Assembly (NCBI RefSeq): GCF_037042905.1 | Contig: NC_087250.1 | Location: forward strand, 25,794,001-25,858,000 | Source: Lytechinus pictus | Taxonomy: Eukaryota | Direction of reading: 5' to 3' | DNA: 64,000 bases | Shown here: positions 2,178-64,000 of the stretch, piece by piece | Layout of the letters: each line of letters opens with the position of its first letter | How positions within the stretch are numbered: the stretch's first letter is position 1 | Notes under the pieces: model-generated | Database searches by the model: none | What the model saw: the letters and a program-made list of their open reading frames with translations, nothing else | Told to the model about the DNA's origin: nothing | Made by a program: the position numbers and the translations under genes

Positions 2178-2348
2178 TGTGTGTATTTGAGTTTTTGTCA
2201 GACGTGTATCAATCAGATATTATTCTTTACGTCTGGGACCGACCTTTAACGTCACCATCCGAAAGACGTGACCAGGGCTCGTACCTCTGCATCAATTTGT
2301 AACTTCCCCACATAGCTTGGATTACAGGCGCACGCCACAACGCCCAGT
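2178..2348 (-). mobile_element. SINE with 7SL/Alu-domain-like head, copy 1
   Basis: Minus strand begins ACTGGGCGTTGTGGCGTGCGCCTGTAATCCAAGCTA; central GTCTTTCGGATGGTGACGTTAAAGGTCGGTCC; CA tail. Confidence 0.8.
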
Positions 2349-11009: not shown

Positions 11010-11698
11010 AAAGAAAGAGAAAGTCGATGATGTACATCACTTACTATTTCTTGTGTTTTTGTATTGTTTGAATAATACAATATTTCAATTTTTACAAATT
11101 TAACAATAAGGACCAAACTTAACTTGGTGGTGGTGGTGGTGGTGGTGGTGGTGATTTTTTACCTGATTGCTAAGAAAGCATGAATGCTTGTAAGCAAGCA
11201 ACCAGAGGACCGACGGCTTAAGGTCCTCTCCGAAGGACCTGGTACTGAGGATTAATGCCTTACCAAAGGGCACTAGCGCACCAAGTGGGAATCGAACCCG
11301 GGTCACCGGAATACAAGTCCCCCGCTCTACCGACTGAGCTATCGCGCCTCCATAAACTTAACCTCCATAACTTAACCATAAACTGTTAATATAATGGTAA
11401 TTCCATATGTTCAGGGAGCAACAAAACTTTTTTTCACTTGCCAAAGAGGAGAAAATTATAATTTTTCATATTTCATACAATGAAATACAAAAGAAATAGT
11501 GATTGGGTGACGTCATCAGTCTGCCAATTTGCATACCGACCAGGATGTGCATGCAACTGTTTTGTGAAATTAAGCGAAACATTAAAATGTCATAACTTTC
11601 TGATTTTACATCCGATTTTGATGAAATTTTCAGTGTTTTGCTTGTTGGATTTTTCTCCTTTTTTTCAAATTAACTTTTTGTTGCGGTGGACTTGTCCT
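11010..11698. mobile_element. Partial TTAA-flanked (Kolobok-like) MITE interrupted by a SINE
   Basis: Ends GTGGACTTGTCCT|TTAA; same family as 24216-24794 and 30995-31587. Confidence 0.75.
11124..11351 (-). mobile_element. tRNA-derived SINE with (CAC)n tail; degenerate copies at about 12752-12925 and 45388-45466
   Basis: GGAGGCGCGATAGCTCAGTCGGTAGAGC (A box), GGTTCGATTCCC (B box), non-tRNA body. Confidence 0.88.
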
Positions 11699-22504: not shown

Positions 22505-22675
22505 ACTGGGCTTTGTGGCGTGCGCCTGTAATCCAAGCTATGTGGGAAAGCTACAAATTGATGCAGAGGTTCAAGGTTCGAGCCCTGGTCAGGTCTTTCG
22601 GATGCAGGTGACGTAGATAATCATATCTTATTGATACACGTCTGACAAAACTAAAATACACACACACACACACAC
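22505..22675 (+). mobile_element. SINE with 7SL/Alu-domain-like head, copy 2
   Basis: ACTGGGCTTTGTGGCGTGCGCCTGTAATCCAAGCTA head, B-box-like GGTTCGAGCCC, (CA)n tail. Confidence 0.8.
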
Positions 22676-22850
22676 GCGCTCAGAAAATGAACTGTACTTT
22701 TACTTTTTATTTTCGAAAAAAACCTCTCAGCTGGCCATTATGATTTGAACTGCATTTACAAACGAGTTGGTGCTTTATAAAAAGCGCCTTCGAATTAATT
22801 GCAAGAATAGGCAAATCTTTTAGCTTAGATGTCAAGGCGAAGGGAGTTAA

Positions 22851-26400: not shown

Positions 26401-27254
26401 ATTTTATTTTCAACGAATTTAAATTTTAGCTCTGACAGCTTTCCAGATCTTTGTAAGCTTTATGTTGTGCAGTGTACATGAGACTCTGACGTGGTTTTTT
26501 TTTTTTTTTTATTGTTCCAAATTCCTTACATTGATCATAATTATTCTCAGTTTACATCAATGAATTTGTAAAACTTGCTTTTGGTCATATATTGCGGGGG
26601 GGGGGACCAGTAATTTCTTGTCTCAATCATAATGTTGGCTTTTCAGCCTACATGTATAGGGTCTAATCAAACTTAATTTATATGCCAATCATTTTGTAAA
26701 CATGCATGCTAAATCATTTATTGCACAGCGCCCTCTTCATTCAAATTGTGTCAATCTGGGCACGTGCTCACATTTAATTATTATTTGAATTTTTTTTTTC
26801 TCGTGAGCTCTACTTCTACCCAGGTTGACACTTCTTCTTTTTAATTCTTGATTTAATTCTAATTTAATTTGTTGTCATCTTCAACAACTATATAGTTGTA
26901 TTTTACTATTTTGTAGTACATGTATGTATGTTATTTTTGTAAAGTCACATGGATTGGAAAGGAAGACCTTCGGGTTATAGTTATTTAGTTAATCTTTTTC
27001 CTTTCCCGGCATCCATGTGACTCTCCTATTCCTATTGTTTGTATATGTTGTTTATGTATTATGCCGAATAAATAATAATAATAATAATAATAACTGTGTT
27101 TTGTCTCTCATTGACTGTGTTTTATGCCTACATAGTTGTTTAATATACCTGTTCAGATATATACTACGGAGAATAAATTGACCTTTTATTTCAACTGTTT
27201 TCCTAATTGGAAACATGATTATCGCGGTATAACTGTATCAAGTGGTTAATTAGC

Positions 27255-27422
27255 GTGTGCGTGCGTGTTTGAGTTTTGTCAGACGTGCATCATTCATATA
27301 TCATTATTTACGTCTGGGACCGACTTTTAACGTCACCATCCGAAAGACGTGACCAGGGCTTGAACCTCGAAATTCTGCATCAATTTGTAACTTCCCCACA
27401 ACCTAGATTACAACGCCCAGTA
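27255..27422 (-). mobile_element. SINE with 7SL/Alu-domain-like head, copy 3 (small head deletion), 7-bp TSD
   Basis: Flanked by AATTAGC at 27248-27254 and 27423-27429; the paralogous site at 40831-40837 has one AATTAGC and no insert. Confidence 0.85.
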
Positions 27423-59728: not shown

Positions 59729-59806
59729 CACGTGAAACAATTACACGATTACACGTGAAACAATTACACGATTACACGTGAAACAATTACACGATTACAC
59801 GTGAAA
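59729..59806. repeat. 23-bp perfect minisatellite, 3.4 copies, overlapping the TRIM-like stop codon
   Basis: CACGTGAAACAATTACACGATTA x3 plus CACGTGAAA. Confidence 0.95.
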
Positions 59807-61432
59807 ATACTTTTTGTACACCAGAAGATTGTTGCCATCACAGCATACAAGGTTCCCCAGAGGAGTAGAAACGCAAGAGGGCGTCGCCGAGAATGTACGC
59901 CTTGATCTCTCGAATTCCACAATGCCTCTCGCCTGGAGGATACCGTCACGTGACACCTGATCAACAGCGGCGACTTTTTGCGGTCTTTCCCGCGCTTGCC
60001 TTTGCAAGATGTAGAGGGCGTCAGTCAGTTTGTCAACATGACACCAGGACCACGCCCACTCATCGTAGTGTAAGGCAGCCTTCTCTTCCCCCGATCGTGA
60101 GATTACAGTGAAGTCAGCAATACCTGTATTTACAACGATGTCGCCCGAAGATAAAGCTTGTATCTTGCCCCGAATCATCTTCCGCTGCAACGTAATGGTG
60201 CTAACTATTTTACTATCCACAGTATTAATGACGTAGATGTGAGACTGACCGTACTGAGCAGCGAGGATCATCCCATCCCTGTCAACATCAACATACACGC
60301 CATTAGAATGTTCATTTCCTGGTATGCTGATACCTCTAGTCGCCTTCAGTTGTCTGTCATAGAGGGTGACCAATTTCCTCGTACCACACACTATTACGTT
60401 GCCATCTATGGTGGCGCATGATGCAACGTCCCTACTATTGAATCCATTAATTACTTCCTCAATATGTCCCTTGTTGATGTTTATGATATGCATGGCCTCT
60501 TTGCCAAACACACACACCACACCCTCATCGATCAAAGCACGCATCCGTGGGTACTTCACATTCTCTGGAATATGGATTGACTTGACAAGTTTCCATTTAC
60601 CAATAAAACCATCCACCCTACCGTAGTATTTCCCACCAATCACACCTTCAGCAAACACCACTCTCTTAATTTCATCCTGCATTTTTTCAAGGCAATCACG
60701 TACATCTTGATGGACGTTCAAACCTAACTGTTCATCAATGGATGCAAGTACTTGAGGGGCTTCATTCACCAACGTTTCATCATGTTTGTTAATCCGCGTA
60801 ATACTTGATTCGATATTCTTCATAGTGTCTATTGCGTGTCTTATCTTACAAGTAAGATCCTCAATCTTTTTAGAAACGACTTCGCTTATCCCCTTCATAT
60901 CTGATGAAACTTTTGCTTCTTTTACTTTGATGACATTTTCCTCCTTTTCTCTCTCGACATTAGATGACTCGATCTGCTGTTCTCTCTTCTCATTAATGAG
61001 TCGTATTTCATCATCTGCCTCATTGTTTATCTTCTGCTCCAAGGTCACGTGTTTCTCTCCTATGCCCTTCAATTTGTTTAGGAATATCGCTTGCAGATCT
61101 TCAGTAACCGTGTCAAGGTGCTTTTCCGATGACGTTGCAACGGCTTCTATTTCGGATTCGACCGTCCGAAGTAGCAGTTTCGTTTCATCTATCTGAGGCT
61201 GTTTTTCTTCCAGCTTCCCCCTCCTCTCGAAGATCACATCCTCGATGTCGTCTAGCTCGCATGGTTTCTGGTGATTTTTGACAGCGCATACTTGACAAAC
61301 ATAAATTCCATGTTGTACACAGTACAATTTGATTGGCTCACCATGCTTGTCACATGACCAGGTCATGTCATGACCTTTCCTTGTACGCAGCTTGTTTTTT
61401 TCATCTCTGTCTGCTGGGAACTTGGACGCCAT
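59795..61432 (-). CDS. RING-less TRIM-like protein (B-box2, coiled coil, probable NHL-like beta-propeller), 545 aa, intronless CDS
   Basis: Uninterrupted 1638-nt ORF; B-box CDKH...YCVQH...VCQVCAVKNH; long E/K-rich heptad region; C-terminal beta-strand repeats (VDVDRDGMILAA, ALSSGDIVV, TPLGNLVCCD). Confidence 0.9.
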   Translation of the reverse strand: MASKFPADRDEKNKLRTRKGHDMTWSCDKHGEPIKLYCVQHGIYVCQVCAVKNHQKPCELDDIEDVIFERRGKLEEKQPQIDETKLLLRTVESEIEAVATSSEKHLDTVTEDLQAIFLNKLKGIGEKHVTLEQKINNEADDEIRLINEKREQQIESSNVEREKEENVIKVKEAKVSSDMKGISEVVSKKIEDLTCKIRHAIDTMKNIESSITRINKHDETLVNEAPQVLASIDEQLGLNVHQDVRDCLEKMQDEIKRVVFAEGVIGGKYYGRVDGFIGKWKLVKSIHIPENVKYPRMRALIDEGVVCVFGKEAMHIININKGHIEEVINGFNSRDVASCATIDGNVIVCGTRKLVTLYDRQLKATRGISIPGNEHSNGVYVDVDRDGMILAAQYGQSHIYVINTVDSKIVSTITLQRKMIRGKIQALSSGDIVVNTGIADFTVISRSGEEKAALHYDEWAWSWCHVDKLTDALYILQRQARERPQKVAAVDQVSRDGILQARGIVEFERSRRTFSATPSCVSTPLGNLVCCDGNNLLVYKKYFHV

Positions 61433-64000
61433 AATGACAGTAGAAATAAACCAGATCTAAGTCATGGGGGGGGGGGGGGTCATGAAATAAAAATCCATGA
61501 GATATCGTAAGAAACGTTTTATTTCAGGTTGTCCACGTAGTAAATACGTCTTTATTGTAACCTAGGTGTCATGATGCTGATACAAGCGAAATATGGTTCC
61601 ATGACATTTTCTCAGGCGAAAGTTGCTCAGGCGACAATTGCTCTGGTGTGAAATCTCCACATTAAACATAACATAAAACCTAGCCTCCAAAACTAAATAA
61701 ACCTTAATACCAATCATTACATTATTCATAACCAAAAACTCTATTACAATCCTAACTGTAATCTTACGCCTTCTGAGATGTTAACGCCAGAGCAATCGTA
61801 GCAGGAGAAAAGGTCGTGTTACTAATTTAAAGTATGTTGTGGGAGTAATGAAAAAGGGGGATGTGAGCAGAGTTCCAGAAGCAAAGCCGAGCATACATTT
61901 AAATTAGGGATCGGTCTGTTTATCACGACTAGATGACTATCCGCCCTTTCACACGGTAAACAAATCGTAGATCGAATGATGATTCCAGTGAAAAATGAGG
62001 CTATAAATGACGAATATTTAGCACGTGTGAAACCAAACTAGAACATGATTAGAATTACGAACGCTAATCACTGTCACGATTACAATAGCAATCAATACAA
62101 TGATGATTCAAGATTCACGTTTGAAAAGGCCCTCTGATTATGGGCCACGATTAGTTTTGGCATTTTAGATGGCACGTAATGATACTAATAATGTGATTTT
62201 GATATGAACGTTGTGAATCATTTAACATTCAGTACTACATTGCAAATTTTCATTGACTTTTAAAAATGATTTATGTTAACGTCATTGAACGTACAAGGCA
62301 CCATTGCACTGAATATGATAAATATCATAGCTTGAATCCCAAATTCCTTCTCATAAATGAAAACATCTCTAGCTATTAAACAATATCATGTCTTGAAATC
62401 TTGACTATTTATCTTTAAAAAAAAAACCTTAAAAACCGAGACCAGCATTAAAAGTAACCCTAGGCCATGTTCTTTATTTTGTTCACGAGAGGCAGTTTCA
62501 ATGTTTGAGATGGATTGATAAATATAGGTGGATTGAATCGAAAAAGAGCAATGGGACCAAAAACTTTTAGCATGGGTAGAACTAAAGTTCTGCAAAATCT
62601 TCAATTTCAATTCAATTTTCAATTTCATTTATTCACCATATAAAAAAATAATCAAGTACAATGCAAAATAACATATATAAATGCATACATGCAACAATAA
62701 ATATATACAATTCATGCATTCATATAAGACATCAACATAATTATGGTAAAAGGCAACTAAAAAGATACAAATCTTGTCAGCAGGTAACATGAAATTTACA
62801 AAATTTCCGATCCCTTGAATTCCCTGAACACATATCCTTTCAAATCATGTCCAAATAACATACTACACATATAACGTGTTTTTATTAAAATTGATGACTT
62901 GATATTACTTACTTCGTTAATTTGGTTTCTGTAAACGGAAGAAAAAAAAAACACGTTGCCCTTCCTGGAGAGAAAACTCGATTTGCTGAACACGAAATTT
63001 CGTAAAAGATGACAATCACAAACTAAGGACTGATTATATACACCCTTACTGCTTTTATCATGGTTATCTGTTCGACCAAATTCCAATTGCTTTTACTGGG
63101 GTCCGTAACACAAAACTTAGCAATCATCGTAGAACGATTGATTGCATTGACTACAATGTACAATCGACCGTAACAATCAAGCGTAAGATTAATCGCGAAC
63201 CTTTGTGTTATGGGCCCCTGATTATGTATTCTGGATAGTCTGCAAACGCAAACTCATATTCAGGGGCCGTGGAACGGTTTTAAAAGTGTGTGCGTGTGGG
63301 GGGGGGGGGGGGGCTGACCATGCAAAAACTACAATTATATGTCATTTTTACGTTCTTGTACACGGTTTTGGGAAAAAGTGTGTGTTGGAGGGGGGGGGGG
63401 GGTCTGCAGCCCCTCCCCGTTTCCGCTGCCCATGATATTTATTTTGACACGTTAAACAATTATACCATGTCTAGAGTGAGGACTAGACGAGACGTCACGT
63501 TTGTGACAAATAGCCTAGTCTACAGGCACAGACCCTGATTGAAACTTTGATCAACAAGTGTGTCTCCATGCAAAGGCGAGCACAACAAAACTTGCTGTTT
63601 CGATTCTGAGCGAGAGGTCCTTCATCACACAAGGCATGAGTAGGCTGCACATTCAGACCCCTAACTCGAGTGAAGGGTTTACACATCAGACTAAAAATAG
63701 CGTGCCACAGTACATAGTGAGTCTAGCCTCACTACTTCAGACTCTGCAATATTCCATATATCAGAATTGTTAAAACCAAGGGTCTGTGCGTGCAGACTAT
63801 ACTCTGGAATTTAAAGAAACAATCAGAAATATCATAAAGAAAGTAAAACTAGAATATAAAAACTATAATGATCAAATGTTATGGGATTTATGCAAGATTA
63901 AGATCAAAGAATATTCAATAAAATACTCAAAGACAATACAGAAGGACAGAAACCAAATATATCATACCTTGCAAAGTAAACTTGAAACCCTTTCGAAAGC

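Follow-up and report, generated by a model that had tools for sequence, protein, structure and literature searches.

A recently amplified SINE family in Lytechinus pictus with a head very probably derived from the 5′ domain of host 7SL RNA

We analysed a 64-kb window of the Lytechinus pictus genome (the whole stretch of 64,000 nucleotides, C6:25794001–25858000; coordinates are those of the window unless a contig is named) and characterized a short repeat that occurs in it three times. The copies lie at 2178–2348 (minus strand), 22505–22679 (plus strand) and 27253–27422 (minus strand), the places at which an initial annotation had put them, and the tail of copy 2 extends 4 nt past the end given there. 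They can be aligned over approximately 170–190 nt with a mean column identity of 76%. A BLAST search with the family consensus recovered the window copies at E values of 6e-80, 7e-54 and 1e-51, and found no further copies in the 64 kb. Copy 1 is a full-length element of the short form (six edits from the young consensus), with a head (nt 1–47; 2302–2348, minus strand) assigned to the 7SL 5′ domain on the basis of the RF00017 model and identity to host 7SL, a mutated B-box position (nt 64–74; 2275–2285, minus strand; GGTACGAGCCC versus the consensus GGTTCGAGCCC), a 3′ stem-loop (2201–2233, minus strand; GACGT...ACGTC with an inner AATCA/TGATT-type stem) and a terminal CTCAAAT motif followed by a short (AC)n tail (2178–2191, minus strand). 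Copy 2 is an old long form that carries a 7-nt GGTTCRA duplication and a 17-nt internal deletion; on the plus strand, it has a decayed 7SL-derived head (22505–22551; 11 bits, E of 0.63 with the SRP model), an intact B box (GGTTCGAGCCC; 22575–22585), a 3′ stem-loop (22610–22642) and the terminal motif with an (AC)n tail (22651–22679). Copy 3 is also old and lacks 15 nt of the head; its B-box position is decayed (GGTTCAAGCCC; 27356–27366, minus strand), and the 3′ stem-loop (27282–27314, minus strand) and the terminal motif with a degenerate (AC)n tail (27253–27273, minus strand) follow. Copies 2 and 3 are 43–44 edits from the consensus. The B-box-like motif reported approximately 70 nt into the repeat is present in the consensus (nt 64–74, or 71–81 in the long form), but is intact only in copy 2 among the three window copies; the reported CA-type tail was seen at the window copies. 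The window also contains a tRNA-Thr (TGT) gene at 11276–11347 (minus strand), the sole tRNA that ARAGORN finds there, and an open reading frame of 553 residues at 59795–61456 (minus strand), for which the nearest protein clusters are B-box zinc-finger proteins, some with NHL repeats; the two best clusters (feature scores of 0.98 and 0.96) are commonest in Echinodermata.

All three repeats in the window are members of a single interspersed SINE family. When copy 1 was used to search the 812-Mb assembly (368 contigs) at the DNA level, 1,689 first-look candidates were obtained, and all 40 that were scored matched; among 40 matches at other loci, 39 have 97–98% identity to the query along its full length. 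Exact motif counts across the whole genome gave 899 occurrences of a 24-nt head-to-body junction, 919 of a 24-nt tail motif, 757 of a 21-nt body motif and 705 of a 20-nt head motif—the last two patterns included one extra filter base, which passes about three-quarters of sites—and reversed-pattern controls gave 0 matches in every case. The motif matches listed fall on contigs C1 to C28 and are therefore interspersed. Contig C1 carries 58 junction matches and 60 tail matches, of which 39 are paired, and capture–recapture puts the family at approximately 89 copies on C1 and approximately 1,400 genome-wide, with old copies probably undercounted. The three copies counted initially are thus too few for a family on the order of a thousand by both motif counts and capture–recapture, and the repeat is not confined to these few loci (705–919 exact motif matches). 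With SINEs defined, as in SINEBase, as interspersed elements of <1 kb with at least 100 copies, this element of 171–178 nt falls within the class. Head and body occur together: among 100 head matches listed, 96 continue into the SINE junction, three are the 7SL genes on C1 and one is broken; among 100 body matches listed, about 90 carry the head on a by-eye reading, with truncation, interruption or rearrangement accounting for the others.

Two forms of the element were distinguished by the spacing of the paired matches on C1, which is 99 nt in 18 of the 39 pairs and 106 nt in 15; the long form (approximately 178 nt) differs from the short form (approximately 171 nt) by the addition of a 7-nt GGTTCGA duplication. 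Several variants of the helix-4 loop in the head are found across copies. Among the 32 best-scoring copies, a sample biased toward young copies that was used for the analyses of both age and duplications, 6 are equal to the 168-nt consensus and 18 more are one edit away (24 of 32 within one edit). This shows that the family is young and was amplified very recently, and it may still be active, given how many copies differ from the consensus by at most one edit. A variant copy (L097; C1:43042180–43042440, minus strand) has a different sequence after the head (...CTGATTCAGCCGAGGACGCAGGTTCGAAACTGAATCGCGTC...), where pairing between GATTCAG and CTGAATC would be feasible, and may represent an older or side subfamily.

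Some copies are found in larger arrangements. Head-to-tail dimers, with monomers approximately 190 nt apart, are present at no fewer than six loci: L039 (C18:1364626–1364910) and five others (one each on C1, C2 and C4, and two on C7). The dimers at L039, C1:19237001/19237197 and C2:61992466/61992650 consist of two distinct monomer types, the same pair each time, and another locus (L040) has the flanks of L039 yet holds a single monomer; the dimer seems to move within a larger repeat or to form by unequal exchange. Copies or tail fragments with identical flanks also recur every approximately 2.5 kb at C1:22736800–22744468 and at four loci over approximately 0.18 Mb at C6:2.83–3.01 Mb; the element has thus multiplied passively inside larger repeats as well.

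To identify the source of the head, we compared it with the host 7SL genes. The Rfam Metazoa_SRP model (RF00017) detects seven full-length 7SL genes in the genome (272–283 bits): three in tandem on C10, three on C1 and one on C12 (L037). Nucleotides 1–30 of the SINE are identical to the C12 gene and one base off the other six, and in an older copy (L038) 35 of the first 36 nt match the majority 7SL gene. The SINE remains homologous to host 7SL as far as ...GGAAGT, at nt 47 in the 3′ strand of helix 2, and the sequences are unrelated from there on. The head of copy 1 aligns to RF00017 positions 1–44 (29.6 bits, E of 2.6e-6), an old copy scores 32.5 bits (E of 3.4e-7) and, genome-wide, there are 18 weak matches at 31.9–34.9 bits, with all three of those inspected being SINE copies; these scores fall under the 70-bit cut-off of the model because 44 of its 299 positions are present. 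The Rfam mir-1268 model, which we take to represent an Alu-derived family, also aligns to the 7SL-like head region. By the SINEBase rule for 7SL SINEs (60% or higher identity to 7SL across 60 nt or more of overlap, as worded in the accessible text of PMC3531059), the element falls marginally within the class: a 62-nt by 62-nt alignment counted by hand gives approximately 46 matches in 66 columns (approximately 70%), with identity concentrated in the first 47 nt. Two of the checks that the initial annotation had proposed—the SRP covariance model (positions 1–44, 29.6–34.9 bits) and alignment to the 7SL of the species itself—agree with its reading of the head as 7SL-derived, and its counter-case, a better fit to tRNA or 5S RNA, did not materialize, as neither a tRNA or 5S model nor ARAGORN gave a match. 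We therefore regard it as very probable that the head is the 5′ domain (helices 2–4) of the host's own 7SL RNA and that the element is a recently active SINE. The suggestion of an independent origin for an Alu-like retroposon also stands, because the head matches the 7SL of this host, and we infer that the family was born independently of Alu/B1, hagfish SINE1 and shrew-mole Urop.

The secondary structure of the head was examined in the same alignments. The covariance-model alignments pair three helix-2 positions, helix 3 and three modelled helix-4 pairs; one helix-3 pair is non-standard and sits in the stretch that is identical to the host 7SL genes. In helix 2, the SINE and the C12 gene have ACU/AGU and the other 7SL genes ACC/GGU, and both strands have therefore changed together. 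The turn between helices 3 and 4 (CCUGUAAUCC) is unchanged in the SINE head. RNAalifold, applied to ten heads and genes, found no double-sided changes within its own predicted pairs. Minimum free energies were close to those of shuffled sequences for the head (z of 0.13) and the whole element (z of 0.26), as they were for the genuine host 7SL 5′ domain (z of 0.18).

The element comprises four modules. Module 1 (nt 1–47) corresponds to 7SL helices 2–4, and includes the 7SL box-A region (nt 5–14), which is identical to that of a host 7SL gene, and the UGUAAU turn of helices 3 and 4. Module 2 is approximately 30 nt of non-7SL sequence with the consensus tRNA-type B box GGTTCGAGCCC (nt 64–74, or 71–81 in the long form). 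The body, which contains a small hairpin (GGTCACGTC...GGTGACG), forms module 3, and module 4 consists of the 3′ stem-loop, ACAAAACTCAAAT and an (AC)n tail of variable length; the stem-loop (CAGACGU...ACGUCUG with an inner AAUCAU/GAUUGA stem) is present in both the minimum-energy and centroid folds. We found no 7SL 3′ part in the body when nt 49–171 were compared with 7SL from nt 46 to the end (543 and 592 of 1,000 shuffles scored as high), and the score lies at the shuffle mean, as expected of the non-7SL body that had been described. The SINE accordingly does not keep both 7SL ends around a central deletion, and the Alu-like head that had been proposed holds in part: the 7SL 5′ domain is present, but the whole Alu domain is absent—as the 7SL 3′ strand is missing, the complete Alu-domain fold cannot form. 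The B box (nt 64–74) occupies the Alu-like position that had been noted, given that the boxes of human 7SL are at 6–15 and 76–86 in the accessible text of Kojima 2020 (PMC7245038). The layout of the A and B boxes is Alu-like and constitutes a predicted RNA polymerase III promoter.

Signs of retroposition were analysed at the same 32 best copies. Of the 32, 6 have flanking direct repeats of at least 7 nt (3.7% among 988 mismatched-flank controls) and 26 have none of that length; at a length of at least 10 nt, the figures are 3 of the 32 and 0.1% of the controls. Several further copies have 5–6-nt repeats that abut the tail, and most copies have none detectable. Copies that are truncated at the 5′ end and retain the last 25–60 nt and the tail were found repeatedly, some with duplications. 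A simple-repeat tail, short duplications and 5′ truncation fit LINE-mediated retroposition by an element of non-L1 type. Five whole-genome pattern searches for the tail or hairpin beside non-SINE bases found no autonomous LINE with the SINE 3′ end. These gave 19, 4, 31, 92 and 5 matches (11 of the 19 and 15 of the 31 loci were inspected and the others judged by match string), which appear to be truncated, interrupted or one-base-indel copies of the SINE or single unrelated sites; the searches reach partners of approximately 88% similarity or more, and one that shares (AC)n alone would escape them. Individual candidates were rejected as partners: a diverged fragment that resembles the body (L096) is next to an unrelated repeat (approximately 1,400 first-look matches) and has no long open reading frame, three loci with fragments of reverse-transcriptase/endonuclease open reading frames (L044, L067 and L092) are unrelated, and a LINE-like open reading frame (L075) ends in a (GAA)n tail. 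At two loci (L094, C1:22685500–22689500; L095, C2:25757000–25761000), the 3′ part of the SINE abuts an element with subterminal GATAAGAAC...TTTTCAGAATACC repeats. In both cases the junction follows GAGCCCTGG, an identical position in the SINE, and on C1 the 5′ portion of the SINE lies approximately 1.5 kb away. The abutting element is possibly a DNA transposon that prefers a particular site in the SINE.

On the basis of these features, we propose a mechanism of amplification. RNA polymerase III would start at nt 1, directed by the internal 7SL box-A region together with the acquired B box. The 7SL-like head is a putative binding site for SRP9/14, which would bring the SINE RNA to ribosomes that are translating a LINE; SRP9/14 is needed for Alu retrotransposition, as cited in the accessible part of Kojima 2020 (PMC7245038). 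The 3′ stem-loop, the (AC)n tail or both would then be recognized by the LINE reverse transcriptase, which would copy the SINE RNA into nicked DNA by target-primed reverse transcription. This sequence of polymerase III initiation, SRP9/14 docking and copying by a LINE is drawn from the layout of the element.

The host 7SL genes have further features in their flanks. Six of the seven carry GGTTCGAGTC(C/T) 19–43 nt past the gene end. This B-box-like element is also written GGTTCGAGTCC and, in the three tandem C10 genes (L031, L035 and L036), sits within a perfect T-arm-like hairpin (CCTGG TTCGAGT CCAGG). The downstream box of these six genes (L031–L036) may be an extragenic polymerase III promoter element for 7SL; it resembles the downstream B box of yeast SNR6. 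Upstream of each C10 gene, a decayed SINE copy ends approximately 35 nt from the gene, between a conserved motif (CCTCAATA.GACAATAAA) and a TATA-like CCTTAATTTCG. The SINE was apparently inserted into the 7SL promoter before the tandem triplication of the gene.

Two other identities were considered for the family. The perfect tRNA-type B box (GGTTCGAGCCC), and the older copies that read GGTTCGAATCC with a partial T-stem, could belong to an ordinary tRNA-derived SINE (SINE2) with a likeness to 7SL that arose by chance or from shared A-box constraint, and the sea-urchin SINEs in the table of PMC3747384 are, in its accessible text, all tRNA-derived. However, ARAGORN finds no tRNA at the three copies and permissive Rfam searches with two young copies and one old copy gave no tRNA-family match at E values of up to 10, whereas Metazoa_SRP matched at E values of 2.6e-6 and 3.4e-7 and one host 7SL gene agrees with the first 30 nt at every base. 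With a head that neither ARAGORN nor Rfam recognizes as tRNA-derived, this identity is effectively refuted and we assign it a negligible probability. The copies could otherwise be chimeric 7SL retro-pseudogenes that formed independently by template switching, or plain 7SL retrocopies of the P7SL_MD or P7SL_Cpo type; mammals are known to have both chimeras of this kind and 7SL retrocopies of full length, as described in the accessible text of PMC7245038. Here, however, the same 24-nt head-to-body junction occurs 899 times, and because the junction is uniform, independent chimeric retrocopies are excluded. The copies also form ordered subfamilies (short and long forms in 18 and 15 of the 39 C1 pairs), longer 7SL retrocopies are not abundant, given that only seven loci reach the SRP cut-off, and the element contains 47 nt of 7SL, not the whole RNA. 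We consider a retro-pseudogene origin highly improbable, and proceed with a SINE family headed by the host 7SL 5′ domain.

How this head was joined to the rest of the element is speculative, and two routes were weighed. One, the main alternative to the other, is a chimera of 7SL RNA and a pre-existing tRNA-derived SINE, in which the 7SL 5′ domain took the place of the 5′ half of the SINE, which retained its B-box arm (the 3′ half of the tRNA), body and LINE-type tail. The B-box region of older copies resembles a T-arm (GAGGTTCGAATCCTGG), and the same route has been described for hagfish SINE1-1_EBu in the accessible text of Kojima 2020 (PMC7245038). Against it, we found no element with the same body and tail and a different head: none of the 100 body matches listed has another recurrent head, and negative-selection searches gave only truncated or indel-bearing copies of this SINE. 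Nor does any tRNA model score on module 2. We regard this route as possible, with a probability well short of even. The other route is an internal deletion of a 7SL gene, from nt 48 to the terminator, that fused the 5′ domain to the B-box-like element downstream. Besides the presence of that element next to six of the seven genes, an old long-form copy aligns to a 7SL flank over 34 columns (5 of 500 shuffles scored as high), and in the variant copy L097 the similarity to the 7SL flank includes an additional GCCGAG. The alignment signal, however, is weak and uneven, with 5, 8, 36 and 120 of 500 shuffles scoring as high for the four flanks tested and between 1 and 552 of 1,000 for the seven genes tested; when the B box was left out of the comparison, 135 of 2,000 shuffles scored as high. 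Convergence would bring any functional B box to these 11 nt regardless of origin, and the 7SL gene nearest to the SINE head (L037) is the one without a downstream box. We think fusion to the downstream element unlikely. If it did occur, fusion to its own downstream box would have turned a polymerase III gene that relied on external assistance into an element whose promoter is fully internal. The proposal in full—a first invertebrate 7SL SINE, for which a 47-nt 5′ domain suffices, which is mobilized by a non-L1 LINE partner and which was born by fusion to a downstream B box—is likewise doubtful as a combined claim.

Judged against the literature, the SINE fits the 7SL class by its head and differs from it in architecture (no more of 7SL than the 5′ domain, together with a B box of tRNA type and a tail of non-L1 type). 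The accessible text of Kosushkin et al. 2026 (PMC13023118) places 7SL SINEs so far only in supraprimates, hagfish and one shrew mole and describes all published ones as having a central deletion of approximately 183 nt and a whole Alu-domain fold. The literature regards independent births of 7SL SINEs as extremely rare. Within the text available, Kojima 2018 limited SINE1 to Euarchontoglires, Kojima 2020 (PMC7245038) called hagfish SINE1-1_EBu the first clear SINE1 outside that group, and the 2015 Repbase Update paper covers one echinoderm species with 282 families. We found no invertebrate 7SL SINE in the literature searched, and an 18-nt string from the head had no match in its text. A young invertebrate family of approximately a thousand copies with helices 2–4 alone would take 7SL SINEs beyond vertebrates, and would test whether a 7SL SINE needs the whole Alu-domain fold or only a box-A promoter and the SRP9/14 contacts of the 5′ domain. 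It would also be the second case, after hagfish, of a 7SL head with a non-L1 partner. Its possible current activity makes the family experimentally tractable and could provide insertion-polymorphism markers for the species.

The closest parallel is SINE1-1_EBu of the hagfish Eptatretus burgeri, for which we rely on the accessible text of PMC7245038. In both elements the 7SL head fits the 7SL of its own host (the hagfish head fits it better than human 7SL), the family is young and its size is in the low thousands (2,363 copies in hagfish), and the tail is a microsatellite other than poly(A), (AAC)n in hagfish and (AC)n here. Both also have a LINE-type 3′ region that implies a non-L1, 'stringent' partner, and would have arisen apart from Alu and B1. 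The hagfish element, however, keeps 96 nt of the 7SL 5′ end and 44 nt of the 3′ end, which makes a whole Alu domain possible, whereas only 47 nt are kept here; its B box is that of 7SL and its partner has been identified as an RTE element, whereas here the B box is of tRNA type and does not derive from 7SL, and no partner was found. Alu, B1, FLAM/PB1 and Urop, as characterized in the accessible text of PMC13023118, share with the Lytechinus SINE a 7SL head with box A in the same place and a B box approximately 65–80 nt in, and are similarly non-autonomous and presumably transcribed by RNA polymerase III. They consist solely of 7SL sequence with the central deletion of approximately 183 nt, end in poly(A), and are mobilized by L1 with no need for a specific 3′ sequence; in the SINE described here, the 7SL 3′ end is absent and there are instead a body unrelated to 7SL, a 3′ stem-loop and an (AC)n tail. 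The tree-shrew Tu types and GarnAlu (accessible text of PMC7245038) are also modular, joining 7SL to sequence from another source, but they are fusions of whole SINE monomers within the SINE1 lineage of Euarchontoglires, whereas no tRNA monomer is detectable here. The sea-urchin SINE2-n_SP families, with CR1 or L2 partners (accessible text of PMC3747384), have the same overall plan of a polymerase III head, a body, a LINE-like 3′ stem-loop and a simple-repeat tail, with target duplications that are short or absent and 5′-truncated copies; the Lytechinus element differs from them in that its head is 7SL, not tRNA.
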